A DNA stretch of 64,000 nt from Bacteroidota bacterium (GCA_021794075.1 JAJYRM010000004.1:8838-72837), one strand, 5' to 3'; shown: positions 6,591-52,762, counted from the first letter of the stretch. Numbers and translations are program-made. The notes: generated from the sequence alone by a model not told the origin.

Positions 6591-8549
6591 CTAAGCAGCT
6601 TTTGGAGTTAGACTTCCAGTTTTCGGCTTCCTTACTTCGCTGCGTATCTCTTCGTCCGAGTAAACGTCCACCGGTTCGAATCTCATCGCTGAGATCTTGA
6701 TGGGAACGTTGTGCCGGTCGGCGATTTTCTTAATGCGCTGAAAGACTTCCGAATCTATGTTTGGTTTCGCGAGGACTATCTCGCCGATATTCATCTTGTT
6801 CATCAGTCCTTCTAATTTCCAATGTCCTCCGAATACCGGATAGCCGTCAAGGTACTTCCCTTCCATCCGCGGGTCGTCATCGAGAAATCCCACAGGCACA
6901 AAAGACGACAAGCCGTGCTCGTCTTGCTGCTCACCCGCGAGAAGAGACTGCAACGCGATCAGTCCTTTTCCGTCGGCGCCATAGATGAGCGCCTTCTTCC
7001 CACCATCTACCACCTCGCGCCCAAACACATAGCTCAGGGCTCGGAAAGCCACCCTTGATCCGATCACCAGGGTCGAGAGGAAATAAAAATCAAGTATGGT
7101 GAACATGCCGACATTCGATCCGTTACGCACGACAGGAAGAATCAACAACGCGAAAGCCGCTATTGCGGCCCCACCAAGTGCGGCCTTCAACATTTGCAGG
7201 AAGTCGCCCAGCCCCATCAGAGTGATCGACCTTCTGTAAACGCCGCCCACAAGGAAAGCAAGAAGCTGGACCAAACAGACCGCTATCATGTAAAACGCCC
7301 AGATTCTCCAGCCGACGACATCAAAGCCCGCATGCGAGCTAAACGTCCACGCGAGGAAGAAAGAAATGAAAACCGCCGCCACATCCATGAGGACCAGCGA
7401 GATCACATGTTTCATAAATGCCTTCTTGTATATCCGAAGAAGGATTCCGTTCCTCAGCAGGGCCATTTCCCGATAACCAAGTTTCCGAACTGCCACAAAC
7501 GCCAGGACCCCAACGGCGCCAAGTATCAACGAGGCGTTAAGGCTACCCGCGGTAACCAAAAACGCGCAGATCCCGAACGCGCACGAGACCACATATAAAA
7601 CGAACACCGCGTCCCTTTGAGTCAATCCATGAGCAAGAAGCTGATGATGGATGTGCCTGCGATCGGGAAGGAACATCGAGTGCAACTTCTTAAGCGTCGT
7701 TGCCGGCAGGGACTGGCCCGGTAGAAAAGACCTGAGAATTCTCCTGAGCATGGCGAGTGACGTATCCATCACCGGAACGCCGAGCGCGAGGATAGGAACG
7801 ATCATTGAAAAGGCAGTCGTTCCTTTCGTAGAACTATTTATTGAAAGCACGGCAAGCATGAATCCGACGAAAAGACTCCCCGAATCACCCCAGAAGACCT
7901 TTGCCGGATTGAAATTATAGCGGAGAAATCCCAGGACGGCGCCTACAAGTATTGCCGCCACCTCAGCGGTTGTCTGATCACCATGAAGGAACGCGATTGC
8001 GCCTATCGTCAGGCCTGCAATTGCGGATATGCCAGCCGCTAGTCCATCGAGTCCATCGATCAGATTGAACGCGTTTGTAATTCCAACGACCCAGATAACC
8101 GTGATCGGCAGAGAGAACAATCCGAGTGAAAGTACCCCGCCGGTGAACGGATTTGTGACCGAGCTGATCTTGAAACCTGCGACATAAACGAGAGTACCCG
8201 CGAGAAATTGGACGAGGAATTTTTGTCCGGGCTTTAGTGTCCACAAGTCGTCGCAAGCGCCGAGGATCAGTATCGTCACGAGAGAAAAGGAAAGCCCCAG
8301 CCAGCTGAATTTCGTGAAGAAGGATCCCAACCCTGAGCCGGGCACAAAGAAATGTATGATCATAAGAGTGATCACGAAACTTCCGAATGTGGCCAGACCA
8401 CCGAGTCTCGGCGTCGGGTGTTTGTGAATCTTCCGTTCATCAGGTTTGTCGACGGCTCCAAGCTTGTAGGCAAGCTTTATTACCGGTGGAGTCAGCAACA
8501 ATGAAAAGCATACCGACACGGCGGCAGAGAATACCAGAATTTCTACCAT
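6591..8549 (-). CDS. Polyprenyl-phosphate HexNAc-1-phosphate transferase (WecA/MraY family) fused to an extra TM block and a WbaP-type Rossmann (CoA-binding-like) domain
   Basis: Motifs GACDD, NAFNLIDGLDGLAAG and HIHHQL. C-terminal half has 4 more TM helices, then KALIYGADGKG...VGFLDDDP...YPVFGG. Start set at ATG 8549 (MVEILVF) with AAGGAGG 5 nt upstream; the ORF stays open to 8606. Confidence 0.85.
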   Translation of the reverse strand: MVEILVFSAAVSVCFSLLLTPPVIKLAYKLGAVDKPDERKIHKHPTPRLGGLATFGSFVITLMIIHFFVPGSGLGSFFTKFSWLGLSFSLVTILILGACDDLWTLKPGQKFLVQFLAGTLVYVAGFKISSVTNPFTGGVLSLGLFSLPITVIWVVGITNAFNLIDGLDGLAAGISAIAGLTIGAIAFLHGDQTTAEVAAILVGAVLGFLRYNFNPAKVFWGDSGSLFVGFMLAVLSINSSTKGTTAFSMIVPILALGVPVMDTSLAMLRRILRSFLPGQSLPATTLKKLHSMFLPDRRHIHHQLLAHGLTQRDAVFVLYVVSCAFGICAFLVTAGSLNASLILGAVGVLAFVAVRKLGYREMALLRNGILLRIYKKAFMKHVISLVLMDVAAVFISFFLAWTFSSHAGFDVVGWRIWAFYMIAVCLVQLLAFLVGGVYRRSITLMGLGDFLQMLKAALGGAAIAAFALLILPVVRNGSNVGMFTILDFYFLSTLVIGSRVAFRALSYVFGREVVDGGKKALIYGADGKGLIALQSLLAGEQQDEHGLSSFVPVGFLDDDPRMEGKYLDGYPVFGGHWKLEGLMNKMNIGEIVLAKPNIDSEVFQRIKKIADRHNVPIKISAMRFEPVDVYSDEEIRSEVRKPKTGSLTPKAA

Positions 8550-8673
8550 AACATCCTCCTTGAATCTGAATATGAGTTTAATCTCGACATCGATCCCGCC
8601 TCGCAACTAGGCGCAAAATCAAATTCCGATTTAGCATTTGCGCATTTTTCTTCGCGGCATGAACTGTTCATTT

Positions 8674-20886: not shown

Positions 20887-20972
20887 CGTCGATCAGCGGA
20901 CAATGTCGCCGCGCAAATCGCCAAATCATTACATTAACAAAATGGAAAAGTAAACAATGAGGAGGTCAACAG

Positions 20973-35592: not shown

Positions 35593-37158
35593 ATGGATTT
35601 CATGACCGAGACAACACCGTGGAGACGTGATAAGACAGGGAAATTTGTTCCCGGCCTTCCGTTCGACTTGACCGTCCTTTACCTCGTGATAGTTTGTATT
35701 TCGCTACTCTTCGCGTTCGTGCTCCTGAAGACATACGGCAACATCGAGGCGTCCGTTGCCCTTCTGGTAGTATTCATGGTCCTGTTTCTGTCATTCTACA
35801 GGGTTGATCTCGCGTTCGACCTCTTCGTGGCGATGGTTCTGTTCTTCGACCAATTCATCGTCGTGCCCGGGGACCCGATAACCGAGAAGGTGGGATATTT
35901 CGATAATCTCAAGCAAAATCCGCTCCTCCCACCGACTTCAATCGGAGTAATGAATCCGCTGGAGATACAACTTTTCCTGATGATGTTTGGACTTTTCCTC
36001 GCAATGTGCGCGAGGAAGAATGCGAAATTCCAACGTGTGCCTGTTTGGGGATTGGCCCTACTGTTCACAACGGCGATGATCCTATCGCTGGCTCATGGGC
36101 TCGCGACCGGCGGCATCTTTCTAAGGTCGCTCTGGGAGATCAGGGCACTCTTCTATTTCCTCCTGCTGTATTTCCTGGTCCCGCAAATCATACAGACCAA
36201 AGAACAGATCTATACGCTCCTCTGGATTTTTGTCGTCATGATTGCCGTGAAAGATTTCCAGGGTGCATTAAGGTTCGCGGTGCTCGGTTTTCATTTCAGG
36301 GGTAATCTCTGTCTTACCAATCATGAAGATCCGGTTTTCACCGTTGACCTCTTCATACTCCTGTTCGGTCTTCTCCTTTTCGGTGTGAAGATGAAGCAGC
36401 GTACCGCGATCCTGGCACTGATGCCCATATTCTTACTGGGGTTCTACGCCGGAAAGCGAAGGGCGGCTTACGCGGGCTTCATCGTCTGCGTGATAGTATT
36501 CATGCTTATGTTGAACAAGAAAGAGAGGGCTGTTTTTTACAAATACTTCATCCCAGCCCTGGTGTTAGTCGCGATATATTCGGCGATTTTCTGGAACTCA
36601 CACGGCAGGCTCGGCGCGCCGGTCCGGATGATAAAATCGGGCCTCATCGAAAGCAAGAAAGCGGATGGGTCGCACTACTCTTCCAACCTCTACCGGATAG
36701 TTGAAAGGTATGACCTGGCCGCGACAGTTAAACACTCGCCGATAATCGGGATCGGATTCGGCAAGAAGTACCTTCAGCCTCTGCCGCTCGTAAAGATAGA
36801 CTTTCCCTTGCAGGACTGGATACCTCATGATGAAATACTCTGGCTGCTCGTGAAAATGGGAGCCGTAGGCTTCTTCACGTTCTGGCTTTTCATCGATGGG
36901 CTGCTCTTTGAAACCGTATCCATTACGAAGATTGTGAAGGACCCATTTCTGAAGGCGATGTGCCTGATGATCGCGGCAGCAATAGTCAATCAGATGGTCG
37001 TCTCGTATTTCGATCTGCAGCTGACCTACTACAGGGACATGGTATTCCTCAGCACTCTATGCGGCCTTCTTCCGACTATTAAAGCGCTGCACAGCGCGCA
37101 GATTTCCGAGGAGAACGCTCCGGCGCCCCCGCCGCTCTCGGATGGAGATCGGCAGTGA
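35593..37158 (+). CDS. O-antigen polymerase/ligase-like (Wzy_C-type) integral membrane protein
   Basis: 521 aa with at least 10 TM helices. It has a large loop with ...GKRRAAYAGFIV... and a periplasmic segment before the final TMs, typical of Wzy/WaaL-like proteins. Confidence 0.75.
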   Translation: MDFMTETTPWRRDKTGKFVPGLPFDLTVLYLVIVCISLLFAFVLLKTYGNIEASVALLVVFMVLFLSFYRVDLAFDLFVAMVLFFDQFIVVPGDPITEKVGYFDNLKQNPLLPPTSIGVMNPLEIQLFLMMFGLFLAMCARKNAKFQRVPVWGLALLFTTAMILSLAHGLATGGIFLRSLWEIRALFYFLLLYFLVPQIIQTKEQIYTLLWIFVVMIAVKDFQGALRFAVLGFHFRGNLCLTNHEDPVFTVDLFILLFGLLLFGVKMKQRTAILALMPIFLLGFYAGKRRAAYAGFIVCVIVFMLMLNKKERAVFYKYFIPALVLVAIYSAIFWNSHGRLGAPVRMIKSGLIESKKADGSHYSSNLYRIVERYDLAATVKHSPIIGIGFGKKYLQPLPLVKIDFPLQDWIPHDEILWLLVKMGAVGFFTFWLFIDGLLFETVSITKIVKDPFLKAMCLMIAAAIVNQMVVSYFDLQLTYYRDMVFLSTLCGLLPTIKALHSAQISEENAPAPPPLSDGDRQ

Positions 37159-37198: not shown

Positions 37199-38698
37199 AT
37201 GGCTTACTCGATAGCAAAATCCTTGTTTAAGAACAGTGCGCTGATGATGATGGCACAGGCCGCGACATGGGTATCAGGACTCGTTCTCCTGATGGTCGTA
37301 GCGCGTTACCTCGGCAGCGCGGACTATGGATACTTGTACCTTGCGCTTTCCATTCAGACTATTTGCCAGTGGGTCATCGATTACGGCGGCCAGAATTACA
37401 TACCGAAAGAAGTCTCGCGGAAGAAGACAGATTCGTCCGACCTCATGACGCAGTCTATGCTCCTCAGAATGGGGCTATGGGTGCTCTCGATGATCGTTAC
37501 CTTCGCTCTTTGCCTGGTAGCCAACTATTCGACCCGAGTCATAATACTGATCATGGTTCTGGTGTTCTCTAACCTGTGGGTTAATCTGACGCTCCTGCTC
37601 CGTTCCGGGTACCAAGGGTTTGAAGACATGAAATACCCGTCACTTGCGACGGTAGTCGATCGAGGCCTGCTTACAATTACCGTAGTCCCCGCCCTTCTGC
37701 TCGGGCTGCGGGTAACGTCGGTCGCCATACTAATGGCGCTCACGCCGTTCGTCAACTTCCTGATCTGCTTAAGGTTTTCCAAGAAGATGTTCCGGCTGAA
37801 CATCTCTTTACAGATGGACAAGTTCAAGCTGCTGTTGAAAGAGGGATTTCCCTATTTCCTGTGGTCCCTCTTCGGTGTCGTCTACTATCGAATCAATGCG
37901 ATAATGCTTTCGCTGATGACTCCGGCTTCGGTTGTCGGTTGGTATGGAGCGGCTTTCAGATTCTTCGGCATACTCATGTTTCTCCCCGCGATATATTCAG
38001 CGGCCCTTTATCCCATACTCACAAGGCTGAGCCGGTCCGAGGCGCCCTCAATGATTAGCACGTCTCAAAAAAGCATCTCGTTCCTACTCCTTGCGGGGAT
38101 ACCGATAGCGGTCGGCTTGATCTTCTTCTCGCGGTTTATCGTTCAGCTCCTGTTCGGCTTGAAGGAATTCGGACCCTCCGCAGTCATTATCCAGCTTTTC
38201 TCCGCGGGGATGCTCCTGACATATGTCGATTTCGTGTTCGGCGGAATCGTTCTCGCCATTGATAAACAGAAACAGTGGGCAATGATCGCTTTCGGAGCGA
38301 TGGTAGTAAACATCGGGATGAATTACCTACTAATCCCTTACTTCCAGACCCTTTCGGGAAACGGCGGAATGGGCGCGGCAATCGCGACAGACCTGACGGA
38401 ATTATTCGTAATGATATCGGCCCTGTTTCTGATGCCGAGTAAACTCTTCTCACGGAAGCTTCTGGCAACTTGCGGGAAAGGTGTCGCAGCAGGGGTAGTG
38501 ATGGCGTTATCGATAGCGGGCGCGGAGTCGATCGGCTTCCCTTACCTCACGCTTCCCGTGATTGGGCTCGTCGCTTACGTGATCGCATTACTGGCAACAG
38601 CTACATTCAACGTTTCACAATTAAGACATCTGCTTGCCGAGATTTCAATTCCCGGCTTTCTCAAAACATTTTCAGAAAAAAGGAGAGCGAGCGCATGA
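37199..38698 (+). CDS. wzx: Wzx-type polysaccharide flippase (MOP superfamily)
   Basis: 499 aa, about 14 TM. N-terminus SLFKNSALMMMAQAATWVSGLVLLMVVARYLGSADYGYLYLALS is typical of the Polysacc_synt family. Confidence 0.85.
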   Translation: MAYSIAKSLFKNSALMMMAQAATWVSGLVLLMVVARYLGSADYGYLYLALSIQTICQWVIDYGGQNYIPKEVSRKKTDSSDLMTQSMLLRMGLWVLSMIVTFALCLVANYSTRVIILIMVLVFSNLWVNLTLLLRSGYQGFEDMKYPSLATVVDRGLLTITVVPALLLGLRVTSVAILMALTPFVNFLICLRFSKKMFRLNISLQMDKFKLLLKEGFPYFLWSLFGVVYYRINAIMLSLMTPASVVGWYGAAFRFFGILMFLPAIYSAALYPILTRLSRSEAPSMISTSQKSISFLLLAGIPIAVGLIFFSRFIVQLLFGLKEFGPSAVIIQLFSAGMLLTYVDFVFGGIVLAIDKQKQWAMIAFGAMVVNIGMNYLLIPYFQTLSGNGGMGAAIATDLTELFVMISALFLMPSKLFSRKLLATCGKGVAAGVVMALSIAGAESIGFPYLTLPVIGLVAYVIALLATATFNVSQLRHLLAEISIPGFLKTFSEKRRASA

Positions 38699-40791
38699 AG
38701 ATCCTGCACGTAACACCTTACTCCCCCGTCCCCCCAACATTCGGAGCTGCGCTGCGGATGTACCACATTCTCCGCGGGCTCGCACAGCTGCATGAAGTTA
38801 CGTTCGTCACTTTCGGGACAAAGAAGGATCTTGAAGGACTTAGATCTGCTTTCGGAGATTCGCTCGACAGCATTCACGTGGTGCCGCCAAACTTCCTCGC
38901 CCGCAGGCACCCGTGGCTCAGGTTATTGGCCGCCTTCCGAAGAAGCGAAAGTTTTTATACTCAATACACTAACGGCACGGAAATGCAGGCCGTTCTCGAC
39001 AGGCTCTATGAAAACAGCCATTATGATTTCACCATAGTCGAATTTCCGCACATGGGAAAATTCAAATTCGGCGCGGACACGATCAGCATTCTGGATGAGC
39101 ACAATGTCGAGTATTCAAATTTCGAGAGGATGTACAAGAACATTCATTCCCCCGCCAGGAAGCTGTTGTACTTCAGGGAACACAAGAAGACTTATCAGGA
39201 GGAGTTGAAAGCGTGCAAAAGCGTAGACGCGATTTTCACAACATCGATAAACGACAGCCAAATCCTTGATCGCGAAGTTCCGAGGAAGCCAAAATACGTC
39301 ATACCTAACGGCGTGGACACCGGATACTTCGTGCCATCCAAGGCCGAGCCCGAACCGTATTCGATGGTTTTTACAGGGACAATGGATTACGTGCCGAATC
39401 AGGATGGCGTGTTGTACTTCCTTGATGAAATATTCCCGCTCATAAAACAAGTTTTGCCTCAATCGAAGGTATACATAGTAGGAAAGAATCCGCCGAAGGC
39501 GATTACGCGAAGAGCGAACGTAGACACTATCGTGACAGGTTTCGTGGAAGACGTAAGGCCTTATACCTGGAAGGCCTCTGTGTACGTGGTGCCGCTGAGA
39601 ATGGGTAGCGGGACAAGACTGAAAATACTCGAGGGACTAGCCATGAAAAAACCGATCGTTAGCACAAGCATAGGCTGTGAAGGAATTGAAGTCAGGAATG
39701 GGACAGATCTCGTCGTGGCCGACAGCCCGGCCAAGTTCGCCGCGGAGGTGGTCGATCTGTTCTTGAACAGAGTGAGAGCGATAAGTCTTGGCGAGAATGG
39801 TTACGAACTCGTGAAGTCGCGATACGATTGGAGCGCTGTCGTCTCAAAAATGGATGACGCTTTAACGTCACTGTACAAAAAGAAGTACGGAAACGACAGA
39901 GATATCGGTTCTATCCAGATGAAAGAATCTCACAGCATCCCTGAACACCACGCGCAGGCGCAATACGAAGAACAGCACACTGTAAAAGTGCTTATGTATC
40001 ATCGTGTCGTCAACGACGAAACGCACATTGATCAGTATTCATGGAATGTGACCGTCTCTCAGCTCAGGAGACACCTTGAGCTCCTCGGCAAGTGGGGATA
40101 CACCTGCATTAACTTCGAGGATTACGCCCTTTTCCAACGGGGGAAGCTCAATCTTCCCAAGAAGCCCGTCATAATGACTTTCGACGACGGATACGACGAG
40201 ATGCACCGGAACGCTCTACCGATCATGAAAGAATTCGGCGCTCGCGCCACGGCATTCATACTTGGCGACCGCTCGATTAAATCGAACACATGGGATGTGG
40301 AATCGGGATTCGAAGGAGCGACGCTGATGGACGACGATCAGATACTTGAGATGAAAGACGCGGGGTTTGAGATAGGTTCACATTCCATGACACATCCGGA
40401 TCTCACCCGACTTTCCGAGCGCCGTGCCAGAAAAGAGATCTTTCAATCGAAGGAAATCCTGGAAGACTTGCTAGATTCTCCGGTCATCTCTTTCGCCTAC
40501 CCTTTCGGTTCCGCGAACAGCCTGATGGAAAGACTTGTGAAAGAAGCGGGGTACGATTACGGCTGCGGAGTATACTCGGGTCCTCCGAGATTCGCCCACG
40601 ACAAGTACGATATTCGCCGCATTCCCATAACTAGAAAGACGAACGCCGTCGATTTCGCATTGAAGATCCTGACCCCTTACGAGTATTATGAATGGATCAG
40701 ATGGGAAACTGGACGCATGATTCGCGGTAGCAAAGTCACCGTCGGCGTTCAGAGTGGAGCATCCGACGACGGAGAGGAAGGGACAATATGA
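38695..40791 (+). CDS. Fusion: GT4 (GT-B) glycosyltransferase + CE4/NodB polysaccharide deacetylase
   Basis: 699 aa from MKILHVTPYSP. The ATG overlaps the wzx TGA (ATGA at 38695-38698). GT4 core: FTGTMDYVPNQDGV...VVPLRMGSGTRLKILEGLAMKKPIVST. CE4 motifs: MTFDDGYDE, GSHSMTHPDL, FAYPFGS. No signal peptide. Confidence 0.85.
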   Translation: MKILHVTPYSPVPPTFGAALRMYHILRGLAQLHEVTFVTFGTKKDLEGLRSAFGDSLDSIHVVPPNFLARRHPWLRLLAAFRRSESFYTQYTNGTEMQAVLDRLYENSHYDFTIVEFPHMGKFKFGADTISILDEHNVEYSNFERMYKNIHSPARKLLYFREHKKTYQEELKACKSVDAIFTTSINDSQILDREVPRKPKYVIPNGVDTGYFVPSKAEPEPYSMVFTGTMDYVPNQDGVLYFLDEIFPLIKQVLPQSKVYIVGKNPPKAITRRANVDTIVTGFVEDVRPYTWKASVYVVPLRMGSGTRLKILEGLAMKKPIVSTSIGCEGIEVRNGTDLVVADSPAKFAAEVVDLFLNRVRAISLGENGYELVKSRYDWSAVVSKMDDALTSLYKKKYGNDRDIGSIQMKESHSIPEHHAQAQYEEQHTVKVLMYHRVVNDETHIDQYSWNVTVSQLRRHLELLGKWGYTCINFEDYALFQRGKLNLPKKPVIMTFDDGYDEMHRNALPIMKEFGARATAFILGDRSIKSNTWDVESGFEGATLMDDDQILEMKDAGFEIGSHSMTHPDLTRLSERRARKEIFQSKEILEDLLDSPVISFAYPFGSANSLMERLVKEAGYDYGCGVYSGPPRFAHDKYDIRRIPITRKTNAVDFALKILTPYEYYEWIRWETGRMIRGSKVTVGVQSGASDDGEEGTI

Positions 40792-42312: not shown

Positions 42313-43506
42313 ATGACCAGCCACGTTAACGCATTCGTGAACACGGAAGCGACCGCCCCGCAAGATATACAATTCCCGGAGACAGTCCACTTCCCGGCCG
42401 AAACAATTGTGGAATACGTTGATGACCTCGAGATGCTGCAGCAGATCCGAAGTGAGTGGGAGGGCCTGTCGTCATCATTTAACACACCGCTTCTCAGTCA
42501 TAACTGGTTCGCGTCTTGCGCGCACGCGTTCGGTTCCCATGAGCAGCCCGAAATTCTCATCATTCGGAGGCGCGGCGAGATCGAGGCGATTGCCCCGCTA
42601 GCCTTCAAGGGACATTTTCAAAAGAGGCTGGAAGTTATGGGAAGCTTCGTCACGAATGAACCAGGCGGAGTTATCTTTGCAGACCAGCGTTCTCTCGCGC
42701 AACTATGGGAAGCCGTGTGCGATCTACAAAAGACGGTTTTCCTGAAAGGATTCCGATTCGGTTCTCCGGAAGCTCAAGCATTGGAAAGCCTGCTCCACTC
42801 AAGACGAATCAAGTTCCTGGCGAGAGAAGAGCAACTCCCCTGGGTCAACACAAGGGGCGAATGGAAGGACTTCGAGAAGACCATCTCGTCCAGTCGGCGC
42901 TCAAGTTTCCGCAGGCTTCGCAAGCTTGCGGAGTCGAAGGGACAACTCGTTTTCGAAGAAGTGATTCCCACGCCCGAGAATGTCCAAGGTTATCTTGAAG
43001 AGCTTTTCAAAGTGGAGGCCGCGGGTTGGAAAGGAAGGACGGGAACCGCCATGAGGTCGTTTAAAGAGCTCGGCGAATTCTTCAGGACCTATTCGAGGCT
43101 GGAGGCTGAGGAAGGAAGGCTCAGGCTGTTCTTCCTCAAAGTCGGCGGACAGACTATCGCCGGCCAGCTTACCGTCGTTCGCGCAAACAGGCTCTGGATA
43201 TTCAAGATAGGCCATGATGAATCCTGGTCATGGTGCTCACCGGGGATTCTTCTCATGAACGAAGTGATCAAATATTGCTTCGACACGAAACTGGAAGGCT
43301 GCGAGATGCTCGGGAGCGACGAGCCATGGCTTCACATCTGGACCAACGAATGCCATACCGTGGTAACATACAGGATATATCCCAACGTTATTGCCGCGAT
43401 GTCGGATCTCCTGACAGATTTTGCTTACGTCGTGTCAAATAAAATAGCCACAAAGTTTGCGAAACAGAGAGGGGCGAGGCCTGCGAATGCTCACAAAAAT
43501 GCGTAA
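42313..43506 (+). CDS. CelD/BcsL-like GNAT protein 2
   Basis: 397 aa. LLSHNWFASCAHAFG...IEAIAPLAF; SSSRRSSFRRLRKL; IAGQLTVVRANRLWIFKIGHDESW. Confidence 0.75.
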   Translation: MTSHVNAFVNTEATAPQDIQFPETVHFPAETIVEYVDDLEMLQQIRSEWEGLSSSFNTPLLSHNWFASCAHAFGSHEQPEILIIRRRGEIEAIAPLAFKGHFQKRLEVMGSFVTNEPGGVIFADQRSLAQLWEAVCDLQKTVFLKGFRFGSPEAQALESLLHSRRIKFLAREEQLPWVNTRGEWKDFEKTISSSRRSSFRRLRKLAESKGQLVFEEVIPTPENVQGYLEELFKVEAAGWKGRTGTAMRSFKELGEFFRTYSRLEAEEGRLRLFFLKVGGQTIAGQLTVVRANRLWIFKIGHDESWSWCSPGILLMNEVIKYCFDTKLEGCEMLGSDEPWLHIWTNECHTVVTYRIYPNVIAAMSDLLTDFAYVVSNKIATKFAKQRGARPANAHKNA

Positions 43507-44335
43507 TAGAGTCACGAGCGCCATTGCTTCCCGGCATGTTGCCGGACATAAGCTGAGCGATGCCTTGCTGATATGCCGGTGGGCCGAATCGGAAGGGTTT
43601 AGAACCGTTATCTCTCCGTGGGCCGGAGCCCTCGATACCCCGCGCGACATGTTCAGCCGTTATGCAGCGGCTATCGAGGCCGTCACGGAGAAAAACGATG
43701 CCAGGTATGTTTCGATGAAGCTTGATTCGATCAACTACGACGGTGGATTATTCGATGATCTAGTACACCTCGCACGGGCAAGCCACGCACAGCTCCACAT
43801 CGATTCACTCGGTCCTGAAACGGCTGATGCTGCCCTCAGCTTCGTAGAAAGAGCCGTCACGTCAGGATACTATATCGGCTATACAATGGCTTCCAGGTGG
43901 CGGAGAAGTCTCACGGATGCGGAAAGAGTCGCAGACCTCGGCGTCCCAGTTCGGATTGTCAAAGGACAATGGCCCGACCCTTCCGGCCGGGCCATAAACT
44001 GCAGGAAGAACTTCACTGAAATCGCCGCTACGCTTTCGAAAAGGTGCCGCCGCATCGGTGTGGCGACACATGATGTGGTCCTCGCCAGAGAAGTCTTGAC
44101 GCGTTTCGTGGTTCAAAATGCCAACATCGAGTTGGAACAATTCTTCAGTCTTCCTCTCAACGGCGTGGCGCTCGCCAAAGAATTTGATCGGCCGTACCGG
44201 CTTTATATTTCTTACGGCCAACCGGGAATTCCGTACAACATCAGGTTCACGTTGACGCGGCCGAGGATCGCGGCGTGGGTGCTCGCTGATTTTGCCATCC
44301 ACGCGAGAAAGCCATGGGCTCAAAATCCTACTTGA
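43487..44335 (+). CDS. Proline dehydrogenase-family (PRODH-like) TIM-barrel protein
   Basis: Collinear with short bacterial PRODH: SRHVAGHKLSDAL..AESEGF; YVSMKLDSI; VRIVKGQWPDP; IGVATHDVVLAREV; YRLYISYGQPGIPYNIRFTLTRP. The start is uncertain (ATG 43487 or 43499; the ORF is open from 43457). Confidence 0.65.
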   Translation: MLTKMRNRVTSAIASRHVAGHKLSDALLICRWAESEGFRTVISPWAGALDTPRDMFSRYAAAIEAVTEKNDARYVSMKLDSINYDGGLFDDLVHLARASHAQLHIDSLGPETADAALSFVERAVTSGYYIGYTMASRWRRSLTDAERVADLGVPVRIVKGQWPDPSGRAINCRKNFTEIAATLSKRCRRIGVATHDVVLAREVLTRFVVQNANIELEQFFSLPLNGVALAKEFDRPYRLYISYGQPGIPYNIRFTLTRPRIAAWVLADFAIHARKPWAQNPT

Positions 44336-44408: not shown

Positions 44409-46571
44409 ATGAAATTAGTATTCATGGTCGTCAACCTCCTTTTCCTTGTGCCGGCATTAATCTTCTCGTCATACCTGGCTGTACTTACGATTGCCGCGGC
44501 GCTTAAGGGAAAACAATTCAAAGTGGCATCCGCAAAGTCTCAAAGGAGGTTTGCCATACTCGTCCCTTCGCACGACGAGGAGGCTGTAATTGAAAACACG
44601 CTCGCCAGCCTGGGGGACTTAGATTACCCGCGAGACAGGTACGACGTGATCGTTATCGCTGATAATTGCTCGGACAAGACGGCGGATATCGCCCGGTCGC
44701 ACGGCGACGTCGTCTTCGAAAGGTTCGATGACACGAACAAGGGAAAGGGACAAGCGCTGAGGTGGTGCCTAGACAGGTTAAAGAGCGAGGGAGCCGCATA
44801 CGACGCCTTCGTAATCATCGATGCCGACACAGTGGCCTCTTCAAATCTTCTCACGGTCATGAACGACTATCTTGAAGAAGGCGCTATGTGCATCCAGTGC
44901 AGTACGCTGGTCACCCCGCAGCCAGGCGCCTGGAGCCCGGAAATGACGCGGATCGGTTTCTTGCTTCACAATTATACCAGGCCGCTCGGCAAGAAGGCTC
45001 TGGGACTGAGCATGGGACTGAATGGAAACGGGATGTGTCTGTCGTCAAATCTACTCTCATCAATCCCCTGGTCGGCTTACTCACGCGTCGAAGACCTGGA
45101 GCACGCGCTGAAACTGGCAATTGAAGGCGTTCGCGTCATTTTTGCTCCTGAAGCCTACGTTCACGCCATTATGCCGACAGATTCCCGGCTCGCTGAGTCT
45201 CAGCGCCGTAGATGGGAACTAGCAAGGTTTTCAATAATTAAGAATTACACCTGGACGTTGCTTTCCGCCGCTATTCGAAAAAGATCTCTCGTAATCTTCG
45301 ATATGTTAATGGACCTCATCACCCCCGCCTTCGTGAACCTCTTTGTGTTGACAGTGGCGGGACTATTAGTTAATGCCGCCGGAACAGTCGTCCTGGGAGC
45401 GCCTTCCGCTCTGCTGTGGATGATGCCCGCCTATTTTGGCGCTCTCCTTCTTGAGACCTTCCACGTCGTCGGCGGGCTTAAGGTAGCGAACGCCGACCGA
45501 GGCGCCTACCGGACCTTAATGAGCACGCCGAAATATGCCTTGTGGAAATTTAAACTCTATATAAGGACAATAATAAAGGGCGACGATAAATTATGGCTAA
45601 GGACGGAGAGGGAGCGTTCTCTTCCCACGGGGAGCGCCGGGGAATCGACTGACACGTCGCGGAGAACCGACCGGAGCTCACATCGAGATGAGGGGTCTAC
45701 TCGCGGTGAGGAAAATATCAGATTTCCATTTCAACCAAGGGTAATGTCGGTACGGATTGACACTTTGAACGCTGAAGAAGTAATGAAAAAGATCGGACAG
45801 TTCCTGAAAGATTCGAAGCTCCATACTATTGCCACAGTTAATCCGGAGTTTGTGATGACCGCGCGGAAAGACAGGGAGTTTCTGCGGATTCTAAATCACG
45901 CTGATCTAAACATCGCCGATGGCATCGGTGTTCAACTTGCCATGAAGATGATGTATGGAGAAGTGTGCGAGAGGATTACCGGAGTCGATCTGACCTGGCG
46001 ACTTACTGGGCTTGCCGCCGAGCAAGGCTATTCTATTTTTCTGCTGGGAGCCGCGGAAGGAGTTGCCCGCGACGCTGCAGCGAAGATGAAAGAGAGATAT
46101 CCGGCGCTTAAAATCGCCGGATACTATTCGGGGAGACCCGACGAAGAAGGCCTGGTCGAATGCATCAATCTGACCAATCCCGACATACTCCTCGTCGCGT
46201 TCGGCGCTCCGAAACAGGAGAAGTTTATATTTAAGAACGCGAAAACTCTTAACGCGAAGATTGCGATGGGCGTGGGCGGGACATTTGATTATATAGCCGG
46301 AGTTGTTCCACGGGCGCCCGCCTGGATGAGACGACTCGGGATGGAATGGCTCTATCGACTCGCGAACCAGCCCGAACGAATAGGGAGAATTCTAACCGCA
46401 ACGGTGCGCTACCCTATCGCGATGTACTTTTACAAATCCTCAAAATCGTCGGTATCGAGAAAAGTCCTCGGCGAGTCACTCAATGAGTTGAAGTCAACGA
46501 TCGAAGCTCCATCGTCCCCCGCTCCCAGGGCGAATCTTGTTCATTCCAATTCGCGGGCAGTCGAGGTATAG
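44409..46571 (+). CDS. Fusion: membrane-embedded processive GT2 synthase (D,DxD,ED,QRRRW) + GT26 WecG/TagA/CpsF-family transferase
   Basis: 720 aa in a single ORF. N-terminal TM. FAILVPSHDEE, IADNCSDKT, VIIDADT, RVEDLEHAL, QRRRW. Four C-terminal TMs and a charged linker. Then VNPEFVMTARKD...ADLNIADGIGV...LLGAAEGV...LLVAFGAPKQEKF...GVGGTFDYIAG...RAPAWMRRLGMEWLYRL. Confidence 0.85.
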   Translation: MKLVFMVVNLLFLVPALIFSSYLAVLTIAAALKGKQFKVASAKSQRRFAILVPSHDEEAVIENTLASLGDLDYPRDRYDVIVIADNCSDKTADIARSHGDVVFERFDDTNKGKGQALRWCLDRLKSEGAAYDAFVIIDADTVASSNLLTVMNDYLEEGAMCIQCSTLVTPQPGAWSPEMTRIGFLLHNYTRPLGKKALGLSMGLNGNGMCLSSNLLSSIPWSAYSRVEDLEHALKLAIEGVRVIFAPEAYVHAIMPTDSRLAESQRRRWELARFSIIKNYTWTLLSAAIRKRSLVIFDMLMDLITPAFVNLFVLTVAGLLVNAAGTVVLGAPSALLWMMPAYFGALLLETFHVVGGLKVANADRGAYRTLMSTPKYALWKFKLYIRTIIKGDDKLWLRTERERSLPTGSAGESTDTSRRTDRSSHRDEGSTRGEENIRFPFQPRVMSVRIDTLNAEEVMKKIGQFLKDSKLHTIATVNPEFVMTARKDREFLRILNHADLNIADGIGVQLAMKMMYGEVCERITGVDLTWRLTGLAAEQGYSIFLLGAAEGVARDAAAKMKERYPALKIAGYYSGRPDEEGLVECINLTNPDILLVAFGAPKQEKFIFKNAKTLNAKIAMGVGGTFDYIAGVVPRAPAWMRRLGMEWLYRLANQPERIGRILTATVRYPIAMYFYKSSKSSVSRKVLGESLNELKSTIEAPSSPAPRANLVHSNSRAVEV

Positions 46572-46606: not shown

Positions 46607-47245
46607 ATGGAACTCGCCGAAGACTCATTGACGTTTCACAGGTTGAGCGAAGTCAGCCGTCGCACAAGACTGCGTTTGCGGAAATATTCTCTCATCTCTC
46701 ACATGAGGGGGTTGTGGTTCGCGAGAAAGCTGACGCGTCACGGGATCGTCGTCGTGACGGGAAGATACCCCGCGCCAAGAGTGCTGAATCGCGGAGGCAT
46801 AATCGATGTGAAGAACTGTGAATTCTACGAAGGCGTCAGGCTGGAGGTTTACAAGGGGGGCATTCTTACGATCGGCAACGGGACATACCTAAACAGGAAC
46901 GCGGTTGTGATAGCGGTCGGCAGAGTCGAGATAGGAAACGACTGTCGTATCGGCTGGGATGTCGTCGTAATGGATTCCGACCTGCATCCGGTAGACGCGA
47001 ACGATCAGCCGATAGAAAGCTCGCCGGTGATTATCGAGGACGATGTATGGATCGGATGTCGATCCATAATCTTAAAGGGGGTAAAGATAGGCAGACGTTC
47101 AGTCGTCGCGGCCGGTTCGATAGTCACAAAAGACATCCCTCCGAACAGTATAGCCGCCGGGGTCCCGGCGCGCGTCATCTCGAACAATCCGGAAAAAGCC
47201 GAATTCTTCCTCAAGAAAATCAAATCAGTACCGACCTCCGACTGA
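46607..47245 (+). CDS. Hexapeptide-repeat (LbH) acetyltransferase (maltose/galactoside O-acetyltransferase-like)
   Basis: 212 aa. IGNDCRIGWDVVVMDSDLHP...PVIIEDDVWIGCRSIILKGVKIGRRSVVAAGSIVTKDIPPNSIAAGVPARVI. Confidence 0.85.
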   Translation: MELAEDSLTFHRLSEVSRRTRLRLRKYSLISHMRGLWFARKLTRHGIVVVTGRYPAPRVLNRGGIIDVKNCEFYEGVRLEVYKGGILTIGNGTYLNRNAVVIAVGRVEIGNDCRIGWDVVVMDSDLHPVDANDQPIESSPVIIEDDVWIGCRSIILKGVKIGRRSVVAAGSIVTKDIPPNSIAAGVPARVISNNPEKAEFFLKKIKSVPTSD

Positions 47246-47255: not shown

Positions 47256-50129
47256 TTACGAAAGATCCTTGCGTTTTAAGAGAGCAAGGAGTCTTTTGTG
47301 TAACGGAAAATCGGCGATCGTGAGAAGCCTGACCACGAGCTGCTGCAGTGAATCCGGCGGATAAGACAGGATAAAATCACTTTTAAGGCCGTCCATGTCC
47401 ACCTTCAGCAGCGACGCGACGGCATCCAGCAATCCTGTTTGGCCCGCTCCCGAGAGGACCGTGCAGCCTAATTTTCTTTCCAGCCTGCGAATTTCACTCG
47501 AGCAATTGGACGGCGCGTATGGATATCGGACCATCTTCAACATCGGAATGTCTTCTTTCGAATCCCCGATAGCGGCTGTATTATCGCCTGAAAAACCAGC
47601 GAACATTTTGAATGGTTCGATGGCACTTCCCTTATCGACATTTCTGCACATGAAGTAAGTGTCGGCTTTCCTGGAAATCACCTTTAGCCTCTCGAACTCG
47701 TTTCTTTCCAAAAACTCCTCAGCCTCCTGATTCGTCAGTCCTCGCGTCCCTCCCGGCACATAACGGTAGGCCCTTACCGCGTAATGGTACGCGGGATCGA
47801 TAAAGACGCCATTCATTTCTCGCAAAGACTTCCGGCAGCGACCAAGCTCATCCAGAGTTTCGTTGTCGACCAGGGAGAGTTCGGTGCCGGTCTTCATATT
47901 AAGCATCGCGCTTCCATATTCTGCGATACCGCCGATAAACCCGAAGTTCCGGCAGTAATCACGGACATGCTCGATGCTTCTGCCAGTGTTGGGTACAACT
48001 TTATACCCAGCCGCTCCAAGTAGAGAAATAGCCTCGAGTCCTCGCGCCGTGGTATGTGGGAATCCCATGATTTCGGAATCGAACACGCCGTCGAGGTCCA
48101 TAAAGAAGAGGCCTGATTTTGCCTCGCCCGCGTCCACGCGGCGGAGCAACGAAGACGAAAACCTGTTCATGGTGTAAACGCGAAAATTCCAGGACCATAG
48201 ACGCCTTTCACTCAACTGGTCGCTGTCCACTTTCTTGTCACCCTTCATAATTCTGTGAAACGCTCGCTCAGATTCCGACGTCGCATATAGCAGCTTGTGC
48301 ACGAATATTCTTTCCCTGAGTGTTTCTACATCGCCGCTTCGAGCCGAATAATTTTCCACCAGTCGATCTTCGCTAGCCTCGTCCAAATGAAATTCGAATA
48401 CCGTTGCGGCGATGTCATATGCCGGGTCCACGACATCGAGCTCAGGCGCGCCGAAGCAGTGCTGCTCGAAATCGATCTTGACGAGCCCGCCGTCACTTCT
48501 AATCCACTCGCCGGGTCTCATCCTTCCGTCTATCAGTGTCGGCCGGAACTTCAGCGCCATCTTAAGCCTATCCAATAGCGCCGGATACTTCAGATAGCCG
48601 AGAAGCCGATTGTAAACGCTCCTCAGGATACTCAGAATCTCAAGCCATCCCCAGCCGAGGTAAGGAATGTTTCCCTTCGGATCTTCGGCAAGCGCGAGCG
48701 TCTCCCGCCTGCGGGCGAGATAGGAAGACATCTTCTCGATGATCTCGTCCGTGACTTCAGAATCCGTCAATGCGGCGCCTTCGATCCATTCCATGATAAG
48801 AATCCCTTCCCTGAATCCGAGAACCTCCGGCACGAATCCCTTCAGAGCCCGTCCGGCGATATAAGCATGATAACCGAGCCAGCCGAATCCGACGCTCTTG
48901 GCGATAATCTTCTTTCGATTTTCTGTCCCATCCTCATACCTGAGTACTGCGTCGTAGACACGTTTGAGTCGAGCCTGAAAGCTGGCTGGATAATGAGACC
49001 AAAGGCGTCCGTTCACTTCGTCGGTCCATTCGTTTTCAATCATTACCGCGCTTCGGACTCCCGATTCAGAGAGCACATCGCAGATCATTCGCTCCATGGA
49101 GGCAGGCTCGAGCATTTCCGCGACGCGAAGGTCCTTAAGATGGACAGTAACCAAACCGGCCTTGTTGTGAGCCTTCTCCTGTATCTCGACGGACAAATCA
49201 ACGCCTGCCGCCGGATGCACGGGTACAAGCATCATGATTCGACCCGGGTCTGCTCCAAAATCAAGGACGCACTTTTCGAGCATCCGAACAGTCTTTCCAG
49301 TGTTCGAGTAATCATCCGACAACAGGACATTCACGTCTTGCCGAAGAAGCATTTTCAGCCTCTTCGCTTCCATGCCGTGAGCTCCGTATCGAGGTCTCAG
49401 CGTGATCCAATTAACATTCTTGACTCCGTGTTCCTGCAAGTAAATCTTGAGCAACGGGGCAAAGTAGCTTCCAGCGGTCCTGGCGCCAACTATCACATAT
49501 TCAGCATCCTTGTCAGGATTCGTGTCGAGAAAGCGCTTTCCAAGCGTCATTATATCGTCGGCGTGCAGATCCTGGCAAACATATCCTTCGTTCAGCCTCA
49601 TCCGCGCTTTCATAAAATCAGGAGGGAAGACTCCCGCTCTCACATTCCCGAACGAGCGAGAGAGCTCAGCAATTTCAGACTCGGCCGGTTCACCATCGTT
49701 CACCAGGGACCTGCAAGTCATTTCGGTAAACCGATCAAGCTCCTCTTTCCATCTCCATATTGCGCGTAGCCTAACGGACGACCTGAATTGCAGCGGATAG
49801 TTCAAAACATTTTCAACCAGATGAATGAGCTTGCCAAAGTGTGGAAAGATCCGGGCCAACGGCATGATATGCCACCTGCGCCGGGACAGATAATCGTCGG
49901 CCGTGCAACTCATCGCGCAGGCGAAGATGTAAAGATTGACCATCATCTCGCTTCGCTGCCACTGAACTGTGCACTTCCGGCAACGTTCCAGTTCATCGCC
50001 TGTTCTCGCGATAAGCTCCCTGATGGTGAGAAACGGATTTGTAGACCACAGATAATTATTGAAGAAGTCCCGCTGACCTTGCACGGCAACCGATTCGCCT
50101 GCATCCTCGATCAAATGTTTTGTTTCCAT
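47256..50129 (-). CDS. Tri-domain fusion: unknown N-domain + PRTase-like + APH/choline-kinase-like + HAD-IIB phosphatase
   Basis: 957 aa. PRPP-type loop YVIVGARTAGSYFAPLL...VLLSDDYSNTGKTV. Kinase-like IDGRMRPGEWIR..GLVKIDFEQ. HAD motifs FFMDLDGVF, VPNTGRS, VDKGSA, AIGDSKEDIPML. Confidence 0.8.
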   Translation of the reverse strand: METKHLIEDAGESVAVQGQRDFFNNYLWSTNPFLTIRELIARTGDELERCRKCTVQWQRSEMMVNLYIFACAMSCTADDYLSRRRWHIMPLARIFPHFGKLIHLVENVLNYPLQFRSSVRLRAIWRWKEELDRFTEMTCRSLVNDGEPAESEIAELSRSFGNVRAGVFPPDFMKARMRLNEGYVCQDLHADDIMTLGKRFLDTNPDKDAEYVIVGARTAGSYFAPLLKIYLQEHGVKNVNWITLRPRYGAHGMEAKRLKMLLRQDVNVLLSDDYSNTGKTVRMLEKCVLDFGADPGRIMMLVPVHPAAGVDLSVEIQEKAHNKAGLVTVHLKDLRVAEMLEPASMERMICDVLSESGVRSAVMIENEWTDEVNGRLWSHYPASFQARLKRVYDAVLRYEDGTENRKKIIAKSVGFGWLGYHAYIAGRALKGFVPEVLGFREGILIMEWIEGAALTDSEVTDEIIEKMSSYLARRRETLALAEDPKGNIPYLGWGWLEILSILRSVYNRLLGYLKYPALLDRLKMALKFRPTLIDGRMRPGEWIRSDGGLVKIDFEQHCFGAPELDVVDPAYDIAATVFEFHLDEASEDRLVENYSARSGDVETLRERIFVHKLLYATSESERAFHRIMKGDKKVDSDQLSERRLWSWNFRVYTMNRFSSSLLRRVDAGEAKSGLFFMDLDGVFDSEIMGFPHTTARGLEAISLLGAAGYKVVPNTGRSIEHVRDYCRNFGFIGGIAEYGSAMLNMKTGTELSLVDNETLDELGRCRKSLREMNGVFIDPAYHYAVRAYRYVPGGTRGLTNQEAEEFLERNEFERLKVISRKADTYFMCRNVDKGSAIEPFKMFAGFSGDNTAAIGDSKEDIPMLKMVRYPYAPSNCSSEIRRLERKLGCTVLSGAGQTGLLDAVASLLKVDMDGLKSDFILSYPPDSLQQLVVRLLTIADFPLHKRLLALLKRKDLS

Positions 50130-51383: not shown

Positions 51384-52762
51384 CGATATACTCACTAGCT
51401 AACGAGGAAACATACTTGAGCGAAATATATCTGGACAATCTGATCACGTATGGGTCAGTGACCCTGGTCTCGCTTGTCGTGATTCTCATTTACCTCTGGG
51501 CGAAACGCAGGACATCCGTAAGAAATATTTCGAAGCTCCGTTTCGCGGCGGAAATGGGACTTCACGAACCAGTATCGCTCCATCCGGTTGTCAACCAGGA
51601 CACTTGCATCGGCAGCGGCGCGTGCATAACCGCCTGTCCGGAGAAGGATATTCTTGGAATAGTAGAAGGCAAGGCGCATGTCATCAACGCCGCCAGATGC
51701 GTCGGCCACGGGGCGTGTTTCCACGCCTGCCCCGTTCATGCGATCGCCCTGTGCATCGGCACGGAGAAGCGCGGCGTTGAACTCCCCCATGTCAGCCAAG
51801 AATTCGAGACAAATATTCCGGGCCTCTTCATCGCGGGCGAACTCGGCGGAATGGCACTCATCAAGAACGCCGTCGAACAGGGTAAGCAGTCGGTACAGTT
51901 CTTCCTGAAGAAAATGAAAAGAAACGTTAATTCAGAATATGACCTCGTGATAGTCGGCGCGGGACCCGCCGGTATTTCCGCGACCCTTGAAGCGGCACGG
52001 AACAAGCTCAGGTGCGTGACAATCGAGCAAGATACATTAGGTGGAACGGTCTTCAGCTTTCCGAGGCAGAAAGTAGTGATGACTTCCCCTATGGATTTAC
52101 CGCTTTACGGACAAGTAAAAGTGAGACAAACTTCGAAGACCGGACTGCTTGAAATATGGAAGCTCGTCCTCAATCAAAATGAAATCCTAATCAATGAGAA
52201 CGAGCGAGTCGAGCATATTGAAAAGAACGGCGATGTTTTCAGCGTGACCACTACGAAGGACGTATATACTTCGAAAGGAGTCATCCTCGCGATCGGAAGA
52301 CGCGGCTCGCCTCGCAAGCTCGGAGTGCCGGGTGAGGAAAAGGAAAAGGTTGCCTACCGGCTCCTGGAACCCGAATTAATATCTGGCAAAAACGTTTTGG
52401 TGGTAGGCGGCGGGGATTCCGCCATAGAGAGCGCAGTCATGATCGCCGACGCGCACGACACTAACAGGGTCACCATATCGTACCGCGGTGAAACATTCTC
52501 CAGGATCAAGACTGAAAACGCCGAGAGAATTTCGATAATGGCAGCGAACAACCGGATCCGCCTGATCTTCAATTCAAATGTGCAAGCGATTACGGACAAC
52601 AAAGTGATACTGTCCGTCAAAGATAAGCCGATTCCTGTGGAGATTGAGAACGACCTTGTCTACATATTTGCCGGCGGGACGCTTCCTACCGCCTTTCTAC
52701 AAAAAATCGGCATAACGGTTACCGAGAAACGCGGAGAAGCTATTCTCAAACATGACGACTGA
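51371..52762 (+). CDS. Membrane-anchored 2x[4Fe-4S] ferredoxin domain fused to FAD/NAD(P)-dependent oxidoreductase
   Basis: 463 aa. N-terminal TM. CIGSGACITACP and CVGHGACFHACP. YDLVIVGAGPAGISA and VLVVGGGDSAIESA dinucleotide folds. Confidence 0.85.
   Translation: MDILTIYSLANEETYLSEIYLDNLITYGSVTLVSLVVILIYLWAKRRTSVRNISKLRFAAEMGLHEPVSLHPVVNQDTCIGSGACITACPEKDILGIVEGKAHVINAARCVGHGACFHACPVHAIALCIGTEKRGVELPHVSQEFETNIPGLFIAGELGGMALIKNAVEQGKQSVQFFLKKMKRNVNSEYDLVIVGAGPAGISATLEAARNKLRCVTIEQDTLGGTVFSFPRQKVVMTSPMDLPLYGQVKVRQTSKTGLLEIWKLVLNQNEILINENERVEHIEKNGDVFSVTTTKDVYTSKGVILAIGRRGSPRKLGVPGEEKEKVAYRLLEPELISGKNVLVVGGGDSAIESAVMIADAHDTNRVTISYRGETFSRIKTENAERISIMAANNRIRLIFNSNVQAITDNKVILSVKDKPIPVEIENDLVYIFAGGTLPTAFLQKIGITVTEKRGEAILKHDD

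Follow-up and report, generated by a model that had tools for sequence, protein, structure and literature searches.

What does a protein do that carries the active-site motifs of a polysaccharide synthase in one half and a primer-building transferase in the other? The question is raised by an open reading frame (ORF) in a 64,000-nucleotide stretch of DNA from a Bacteroidota bacterium (GCA_021794075.1 JAJYRM010000004.1:8838-72837, one strand; hereafter the window), which fuses a membrane glycosyltransferase of family GT2 to a transferase of family GT26. We propose, with a probability of about 0.7, that its product is a bifunctional membrane-anchored glycosyltransferase for two cytoplasmic-face steps of lipid-linked repeat-unit assembly. 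The fusion joins two neighbouring sugar-adding enzymes of one exopolysaccharide (EPS) pathway: it is a recurrent and fairly ordinary fusion and not a new polymer-making machine. The protein takes its place as an uncharacterised new example among the multi-domain glycosyltransferases of Wzx/Wzy pathways.

One reading frame, two glycosyltransferase modules

The positions of the ORF, its modules and its conserved residues are collected in Table 1. In public gene calls the identical sequence (P0001) starts at Met6 (position 44424), giving a product of 715 aa. Three GT2 models of Pfam exceed their gathering scores in the N-terminal half: PF13641 at aa 47-269 (84.8 bits, cutoff 27), PF13632 at aa 134-330 (54.4 bits) and PF00535 (53.5 bits). 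With a conserved DxD motif and a GT-A core in the AlphaFold2 (AF2) model (pLDDT 92.4, pTM 0.89), the module belongs to GT2. Its best NCBIfam model is EpsU of Myxococcus xanthus (NF041865), aligned end to end (model positions 5-391 of 394) at 264.4 bits; as this is far below the cutoff of 700, the GT2 half is a relative of EpsU and not its ortholog. The synthase models PgaC, CelA and MdoH reach 60, 18.8 and 18 bits (cutoffs 422, 699 and 328), and the NodC model gave no match at E<0.01 in the same NCBIfam search.

The C-terminal half contains PF03808 (Glyco_tran_WecG, GT26) at aa 498-661, covering profile positions 1-167 of 168 (E=1.4e-57, 194.6 bits, cutoff 27.4), and matches TIGR00696 with 147.7 bits (cutoff 69). 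It aligns end to end with the TagA structure 7MPK (E=1e-54). The likeness to TagA extends over the full length, including the C-terminal tail, the catalytic residues and the membrane-patch positions, which hold hydrophobic residues here as well. In TagA, D65 and R214/R221/R224 matter by experiment, and the C-terminal tail lets the enzyme act as a monomer bound to the membrane (PMC8784642). The counterparts in the fusion, D504 and R650/R657/R660, are invariant or at least 90% conserved across 20 fused homologues. TagA/TarA and WecG, the β-1,4-ManNAc and ManNAcA (N-acetylmannosamine and its uronic acid) transferases acting on undecaprenyl-diphosphate-linked N-acetylglucosamine (Und-PP-GlcNAc), are peripheral monomers, whereas here the GT26 is tethered to a transmembrane (TM) protein. 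Scores remain below the equivalog cutoffs for TarA (144.2 against 350 bits), for WecG (PRK03692, 130.1 against 323) and for M. xanthus EpsA, which is among the best NCBIfam models of this half (140 bits, cutoff 500). Two reports (PMC8784642; PMC9804384) describe GT26 enzymes as using Und-PP-GlcNAc at the membrane.

Across the 119 family members of our GT2 alignment (A1), the residues that hold donor and acceptor are strongly conserved. D85 is kept in at least 90% of them, as is D138 of the DxD motif; at the family level the interface-helix motif reads QRxRW, with a variable third residue. The 20 fused proteins show little or no variation at the catalytic positions of either half.

Much of an earlier sequence-only reading of this locus is thereby borne out. 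It had described a single ORF, which indeed has no internal stop between 44409 and 46571; synthase-type motifs in the N-terminal half, all of which are present and at least 90% conserved (D85, D138-A-D140, E228-D229, Q265-R-R-R268-W269); TM helices after the catalytic domain, of which there are two (aa ~294-329 and 333-359) besides interface helices; and a charged linker, found at aa 403-441 and predicted to be disordered. The complete GT26 domain that it had seen aligns with TagA over its full length and keeps the catalytic Asp and three tail Arg, so that it is apparently active, and the WecA-like enzyme that it had placed in the window is a PF00953 protein at 6591-8606 on the minus strand.

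Membrane topology, pathway context and activity

By hydropathy and the positive-inside rule, the N-terminus lies outside, and the GT-A domain, the segment after TM3 (11 K/R), the linker and the GT26 are cytoplasmic. The protein has three TM helices, and K/R-rich segments follow TM1 and TM3, which leaves both catalytic domains in the cytoplasm. This topology puts both active sites on one membrane surface, the one where an Und-PP-linked acceptor sits.

All parts of a Wzx/Wzy pathway occur in the window: Wzx, Wzy, a polysaccharide co-polymerase (PCP), an outer-membrane polysaccharide export protein (OPX), a transferase of N-acetylhexosamine-1-phosphate to polyprenyl phosphate (PNPT) and the repeat-unit transferases, namely a GT4-CE4 protein and the GT2-GT26 fusion. 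In NCBIfam, Wzy, Wzx and each half of the fusion find their best models in the Myxococcus EPS set (Wzy_EPS, Wzx_EPS, EpsU and EpsA), each match being below its equivalog cutoff; EpsC is in the hit list of the hexapeptide acetyltransferase encoded directly downstream. The EPS pathway of M. xanthus is experimentally Wzx/Wzy-dependent, and its five glycosyltransferases include EpsU and EpsA (PMC7484181). The type of pathway is shared, and yet EpsU (MXAN_7422) and EpsA (MXAN_7451) are encoded there by separate, non-adjacent genes, whereas their relatives are fused here. The Myxococcus pathway also starts with a polyisoprenyl-phosphate hexose-1-phosphate transferase (PHPT; EpsZ, galactose-1-phosphate), whereas the window has a WecA-like PNPT. 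Both proteins are relatives and not orthologs of the fusion halves (cutoffs 700 and 500), and the reaction of neither has been defined.

A core of Wzy, Wzx, CE4, GNAT and GT2 genes recurs in three related loci (L003, L007 and L008), and a fused homologue of 36% identity (L004) has Wzy and Wzx nearby. The labels of relatives (Kryptoniota, Ignavibacteria or Bacteroidota), together with sorting domains of the type IX secretion system (T9SS), point to an uncultured member of the FCB (Fibrobacterota-Chlorobiota-Bacteroidota) group as the host.

Knowledge of the enzyme families suggests how such a protein would work on the topology described above. The WecA-like PNPT would make Und-PP-HexNAc (HexNAc, N-acetylhexosamine), to which the GT26, tethered by the linker at the cytoplasmic membrane face, would add the second sugar; if it acts as TagA or WecG does, this is a β-linked ManNAc or ManNAcA. 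The EpsU-like GT2, whose active site and QRxRW helix lie at the interface with the membrane, would then add one more β-linked sugar to the short lipid-linked acceptor. The GT4-CE4 protein, the GNAT acyltransferases and the hexapeptide acetyltransferase would finish and decorate the repeat unit; Wzx would flip it, Wzy polymerise it, and Wzc/Wza export the chain. The fusion would fix a 1:1 stoichiometry and the proximity of two enzymes working on the same lipid carrier.

The sequence-only reading had instead implied synthase-type polymerisation on a lipid-linked disaccharide. On this model the GT2 half would be a processive, translocating synthase, polymerising and exporting a β-glycan on the primer Und-PP-GlcNAc-ManNAc(A) that the GT26 supplies, as if the pathway of Salmonella enterica O54 were condensed into one protein. 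In O54, WecA is followed by the ManNAc adaptor WbbE and then by the synthase WbbF, two separate proteins (PMC7685785); in both schemes a GT2 synthase extends a lipid-linked disaccharide made by a non-processive transferase. The WecA-like enzyme of the window agrees with such a scheme, but no Wzx or Wzy takes part in O54, whereas here Wzx, Wzy, PCP and OPX are present (and conserved around the gene in several lineages), and the GT2 falls short of a full TM channel. Of the six TM helices in the minimal cellulose-synthase core, two precede the GT domain and two follow the gating loop (PMC8892547), and hyaluronan synthases (HAS) have 2+4 (bioRxiv 10.1101/2023.05.11.540447). Here the count is 1+2, one before the GT domain and two after it, with none past the W396-R401 loop, so that a single chain lacks a channel of the synthase type, which takes at least six helices, two of them ahead of the GT domain and at least two beyond the gating loop. 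Taken together, BcsA, HAS and chitin synthase have six to eight TM helices against three, share 12-18% identity with the module, and no synthase NCBIfam model comes near its cutoff; by sequence, the module groups with EpsU (264 bits) and not with PgaC (60), CelA (19) or MdoH (18). Close relatives work without an adjacent GT26 (L007), the synthase partners BcsB, PgaD or a PilZ-type domain were not found, and the additional domains of longer homologues are Acyl_transf_3 or STAS. The missing helices and the Wzx/Wzy context disfavour a secreting synthase, and we consider synthase-type polymerisation improbable. Whether the GT2 half clusters with non-processive enzymes can be answered for the pathway, where it sides with EpsU and Wzx/Wzy systems; for processivity the grouping says little, EpsU itself never having been assayed.

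Two other activities can be considered. The GT2 might be oligo-processive without translocating, like NodC, and in the cytoplasm attach a short run of identical β-linked sugars (e.g. GlcNAc) to the product of the GT26. This oligomer would be modified by the CE4 and GNAT enzymes, as Nod factors are by NodB and NodA, before the long repeat unit passes to Wzx/Wzy. NodC shares the 1+2/3-TM layout, and the module resembles small GT2 synthases in size as well as in that layout; it also retains all acceptor-holding motifs. CE4 and two GNAT genes lie beside the GT2 gene in the window, L003 and L008 (the L007 core has CE4 and one GNAT), the cluster is flanked in the window and L008 by GH18 genes, whose products act on β-GlcNAc polymers, and GlmS is encoded twice in the window. 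Against this stand the lack of a NodC match at E<0.01, a CE4 domain that best matches PgaB and PEP-CTERM-type deacetylases (NodB only 30 bits), GH18 genes with T9SS secretion tails that could serve chitin foraging, and repeated additions for which direct support is missing; we find this activity unlikely. In a broader form, which we also doubt, a stripped-down processive EpsU-like module would lay a short homo-oligomeric β-glycan, possibly a chito-oligomer, on Und-PP-HexNAc-ManNAc(A), to be remodelled by CE4/GNAT, handled by Wzx/Wzy and trimmed by secreted GH18. If true, this would be a hybrid of synthase-type and Wzy-type assembly of a kind not described, and an oligo-processive family would blur the textbook division between synthase and Wzy pathways. 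It is very improbable that the GT2 glycosylates a lipid other than an Und-PP-glycan, e.g. diacylglycerol, to give a glycolipid anchor or primer. The Joint Genome Institute (JGI) label '1,2-diacylglycerol 3-beta-glucosyltransferase' stands on many family members, fused ones included, the GT2 is embedded in the membrane with its active site at the bilayer surface, and several fused homologues have a weak match to Glyco_transf_21, the ceramide glucosyltransferase family. The label comes however from automated orthology, Wzx/Wzy clusters are where the family resides, and a shared Und-PP carrier is favoured by its recurrent fusion to GT26, a family that uses Und-PP-linked acceptors (PMC8784642).

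Several observations weigh against our proposal of two single-sugar steps. All classical 'processive' motifs (D, DxD, ED, QRRRW, or QRxRW in the family) are conserved on a GT-A domain, the last of them on the interface helix. A gating-loop-like W-x-R-T-x-R follows a helix resembling interface helix 3 (IFH3) of synthases; this loop is a possible counterpart of FxVTxK in BcsA and WGTSGR(K/R) in HAS, a comparison made from sequence at a site of low pLDDT. In Foldseek the best matches of the GT2 model are BcsA (TM-score normalised by the query, TMq, of 0.62-0.64), then hyaluronan synthases (~0.5), and the channel that one chain lacks could in principle be supplied by several chains together, as an oligomer, or by a pore of protein and lipid. 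It is context, and context only, that suggests single-sugar addition by the GT2 module. The PNPT lies 36 kb from the cluster and its link to the pathway is assumed, and Pfam recognises neither Wzx nor Wzy within 10 kb of two distant fused homologues, L005 and L006; each has a PHPT, with a Wzc-like gene in addition in L006. Among the window's ORFs of at least 150 aa, no UDP-GlcNAc 2-epimerase (Epimerase_2) or UDP-ManNAc dehydrogenase was found, which makes ManNAc(A) no more than a tentative assignment for the GT26.

A small archaeal enzyme helps to place the fold. PcManGT of Pyrobaculum calidifontis (PDB 6YV7) gives a match close to that of HAS (TMq 0.52; target-normalised TM-score, TMt, 0.61); it has the highest target-normalised score among the full-length-type hits and is the only GT2 structure with a sequence match better than E=1e-6 (7e-07). 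It is a small membrane GT2 with a 'minimal cellulose-synthase-like fold', assigned to N-glycan assembly and proposed to serve lipid-linked glycans and not the secretion of a polymer (Gandini et al. 2020, as cited in PMC8993221). Its activity is given there as unconfirmed (PMC8993221), which weakens the comparison as an argument for our proposal. PcManGT differs from the module in its GDP-mannose donor and in having no GT26 partner, with 16% identity between the two.

Altogether, the GT2 module is a cut-down version of this 'minimal cellulose-synthase-like' fold, which keeps the motifs that hold donor and acceptor and lacks the translocation-channel helices. The fold alone does not decide processivity. 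A caution for annotation follows: QxxRW, TM helices and a BcsA-like fold are insufficient to name a secreting synthase, and Wzx/Wzy clusters harbour a large family whose members have half of the TM helices of a synthase.

Origin and recurrence of the fusion

Among unfused relatives, P0003-P0005 come closest; they are stand-alone GT2 proteins of 408 aa with 65-67% identity. One genome (L003, GCA_046706745.1) has a cluster fully syntenic with the window: Wzy, Wzx, GT4-CE4, two GNAT, the 282-aa protein of Table 1, GT2, GT26 and hexapeptide acetyltransferase. There the 408-aa GT2 and a 316-aa GT26 are separate and overlap by 17 nt in different frames. The GT2 ends '...LRTERDHKLASRN*', and the GT26 gene opens 17 nt ahead of that stop. 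In the window, the conserved blocks '...WLRTER' and 'FQPR(V/I)(M/L)SVRIDTL...' are joined in frame by the linker, which stands where L003 has the stop codon, the gene overlap and the change of frame. As the syntenic cluster carries the halves as overlapping adjacent genes, the fusion is a recent one between neighbours, by loss of the stop codon and a change that put both genes in one frame; the ancestral adjacent genes were probably translationally coupled.

The same in-frame fusion, 73% identical in amino acids, occurs in a second genome (L001, GCA_021811615.1) and in a Logan assembly (L002). Between the window and L001, the linkers have equal length and 23% identity, and their 39 codons show neither indel nor stop although dS (synonymous divergence) exceeds 1. 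The ratio of nonsynonymous to synonymous divergence (dN/dS) is ~0.07 in each catalytic half and ~0.68 in the linker. From this pattern, and from the intact frame at such divergence, it follows that selection keeps the frame open while the linker sequence drifts.

An error of sequencing or assembly, by which a frameshift or a lost stop would merge two genes that are really separate in the organism, is hardly conceivable against this record. The sequence-only reading had asked for the frame to be verified across the junction, and Logan contigs assembled independently from runs of different studies cover 45550-46000 without gap or indel (X1 over the whole stretch, X5 at 45550-45791, X8 at 45660-46000). 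That inspection covered assembled contigs and not raw reads, and the closest unfused relative does have two genes at the same position; but the contigs of different studies concur, the 73%-identical homologues of another assembly and of Logan keep the fusion with a stop-free linker of equal length, and at least 25 more distant fused representatives exist.

In the full-length AF2 model both domains are confident, residues 405-439 have pLDDT below 50, and pTM falls to 0.64, against 0.89 for the GT2 alone, giving no confident arrangement of one domain relative to the other. The model fits a linker that is a flexible tether. An internal start at Met446 (ATG 45744-45746, at the beginning of the GT26 core), from which a free GT26 might be made, is conceivable but was set aside. 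The ATG is common to both fused lineages (L003 has Leu there), but no Shine-Dalgarno-like sequence occurs consistently at usable spacing in both.

On a neighbour-joining (NJ) tree of the GT2 domain, fused forms fall in ~15 clades, and the window and L001 are nested among the unfused relatives of 65-67% identity. The tree is a rough one, being distance-based, with deep divergences and sampling biased toward fused proteins; on its ~15 fused clades we reject a single origin of all fusions. The fusion arose or was lost repeatedly, and the GT2-GT26 partnership is recurrent.

We searched 1.84 billion cluster representatives (50% identity) exhaustively with HMMER and mapped the domains of the best 150 of 28,853 hits. 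Among these 150, at least 25 further representatives have a near-full-length EpsU-like GT2 followed by a GT26, with 28-40% identity to the query; two of them are fragments. With the alignment A1 we also examined 80 species-representative genomes encoding an EpsU-like GT2, taking up to 10 kb of the locus on each side. GT26 is fused to the GT2 in three (L034, Actinomycetes; L040, Dormiibacterota; L054, Chloroflexi), directly downstream of it in five, directly upstream in two and elsewhere in the fetched locus in 24, making 34 of 80 in all; it was not found in the fetched locus of the other 46, some of these loci being short.

The sequence-only reading did not recognise the architecture as a described one. 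The same order occurs in at least 25 other 50%-identity clusters and in three of 80 genomes, from three other phyla: public data contain the arrangement too often for it to count as unprecedented. In the searchable literature we found no published description of a GT2-GT26 fusion, although absence there is no proof of absence, and nothing relevant on QxxRW enzymes in Wzy pathways.

As a 'Rosetta stone', the recurrent fusion indicates that an EpsU-like GT2 and a GT26 act together on the same lipid-linked intermediate. It offers a hypothesis for the order of steps in the Myxococcus EPS pathway, in which EpsA and EpsU would be consecutive, and likewise in many uncultured lineages of the FCB group, Chloroflexota and Actinomycetota.

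Some longer, distant fusions carry a third, C-terminal domain: Acyl_transf_3, a membrane O-acyltransferase, in P0122, and STAS in P0139, P0143 and P0152. The STAS domain suggests partner-switching regulation in some lineages.

The surrounding gene cluster

Table 1 Features of the GT2-GT26 ORF and of related genes in the window (positions counted from the first letter of the stretch).
Feature	Position	Strand	Basis or remark
Whole fused ORF	44409..46571	+	uninterrupted; 720 aa and stop
EpsU-like membrane GT2 module, aa 1-402 (TM1, GT-A domain, interface helices, TM2-TM3, amphipathic helix)	44409..45614	+	Pfam, NCBIfam, AF2 pLDDT 92.4, Foldseek
TM helix 1, aa 2-33, then K/R-rich cytoplasmic segment	44412..44507	+	hydropathy, AF2 model
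DxD motif D138-A-D140, donor/metal binding	44820..44828	+	D140 invariant, D138 at least 90% conserved
E228-D229, counterpart of the TED/ED catalytic-base motif of GT2 synthases	45090..45095	+	invariant in 119 and in 20 sequences
Q265-R-R-R-W269 on long interface helix 259-291	45201..45215	+	Q265, R266, R268, W269 invariant in A1
TM helices 2 and 3, aa ~294-329 and 333-359, returning the chain to the cytoplasm	45288..45485	+	hydropathy, AF2 secondary structure
Amphipathic cationic helix, aa 364-390, interface-helix-like, not TM	45498..45578	+	mean Kyte-Doolittle hydropathy -0.21, 7 charged residues
W396-L-R-T399-E-R401 conserved loop, end of GT2 module	45594..45611	+	W396, T399 invariant; R398, R401 at least 90% conserved
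Fusion linker, aa 403-441 (39 aa), charged, predicted disordered	45615..45731	+	junction alignment, pLDDT
GT26 (WecB/TagA/CpsF) module with TagA-type C-terminal tail, aa 442-676	45732..46436	+	PF03808, TIGR00696, 7MPK E=1e-54
D504, equivalent to TagA catalytic D65	45918..45920	+	7MPK alignment; invariant in 20 fused proteins; PMC8784642
R650, R657, R660, equivalent to TagA tail R214, R221, R224	46356..46388	+	7MPK alignment; PMC8784642
Low-confidence C-terminal tail, aa 677-720, and stop	46437..46571	+	also on stand-alone GT26 of L003
WecA/MraY-family PNPT with CoA_binding_3 domain	6591..8606	-	PF00953 E=1.9e-42
Wza-like OPX	9613-10518	-	export/chain-length module
Wzz/GNVR PCP	10867-12222	+	export/chain-length module
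P-loop kinase-like ATPase	12240-13016	+	export/chain-length module
Wzy-type repeat-unit polymerase	35593..37158	+	PF04932; best NCBIfam match Wzy_EPS
Wzx-type flippase	37199..38698	+	PF01943; best NCBIfam match Wzx_EPS
GT4-family transferase fused to CE4 polysaccharide deacetylase	38695..40791	+	start inferred from 698-aa L001 homologue; mechanical ORF from 38470
Two Acetyltransf_6 (FemAB-like GNAT) genes	40788-42281, 42313-43506	+	Pfam
Conserved 282-aa protein, no Pfam family, directly upstream of GT2	43487..44335	+	start inferred from homologues
Hexapeptide-repeat O-acetyltransferase, directly downstream of fusion	46607..47245	+	family match

The PNPT, whose best NCBIfam match is ECA_wecA (below the model cutoff), is the likely initiating enzyme. 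It is an unusual chimera of PNPT and PHPT-accessory domain: its extra C-terminal region resembles the non-catalytic N-terminal/CoA_binding_3 part of WbaP/WcaJ-type transferases (TIGR03025 positions 1-223). The export and initiation module lies 22-36 kb from the Wzy-Wzx cluster and presumably serves the same pathway.

The GT4-CE4 protein is a second fusion of the cluster. Its GT4 part best matches the PEP-CTERM/XrtA 'stp1' model of NCBIfam (232 bits). The same fusion occurs in L001 and L003; L007 has separate genes, and L008 a stand-alone deacetylase at this place. The 282-aa protein holds the same position in the window, L001, L003 and L008; a Thermus proline-dehydrogenase model is its sole match, and a weak one (49.6 bits, cutoff 500).

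Five paralogous genes of the chitinase family GH18 lie on the minus strand at 15346-16821, 22036-23481, 23515-24786, 24864-26351 and 26807-30082, four of them with a T9SS C-terminal sorting domain. In L008, GH18+T9SS genes adjoin the homologous EPS cluster (17236-21209). These enzymes may process a GlcNAc-containing EPS or simply serve chitin foraging. Two paralogs of GlmS, the glutamine-fructose-6-P aminotransferase, at 56-1888(-) and 17378-19354(-), and two ComA-like paralogs (phosphosulfolactate synthase family), at 14514-15341(+) and 20973-21785(+), share one stretch of 20 kb. The GlmS/ComA-like region appears to be duplicated and the supply of amino sugars boosted.

A 957-aa ORF at 47256-50129(-) matches a known family in its C-terminal, HAD-IIB phosphatase-like region only, the N-terminal ~650 aa having no family match. 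It is kept at the same position in L001 and absent from L003, whose cluster runs straight into a ferredoxin/pyridine-nucleotide oxidoreductase gene. Downstream of the EPS cluster, at 52752-56239(+) and 58412-60802(+), are two large multihaem c-type cytochromes with MtrC/MtrF-like domain matches, together with a CcmF-like cytochrome c maturation protein. This arrangement is kept in L003; the sample is a mine-drainage metagenome.

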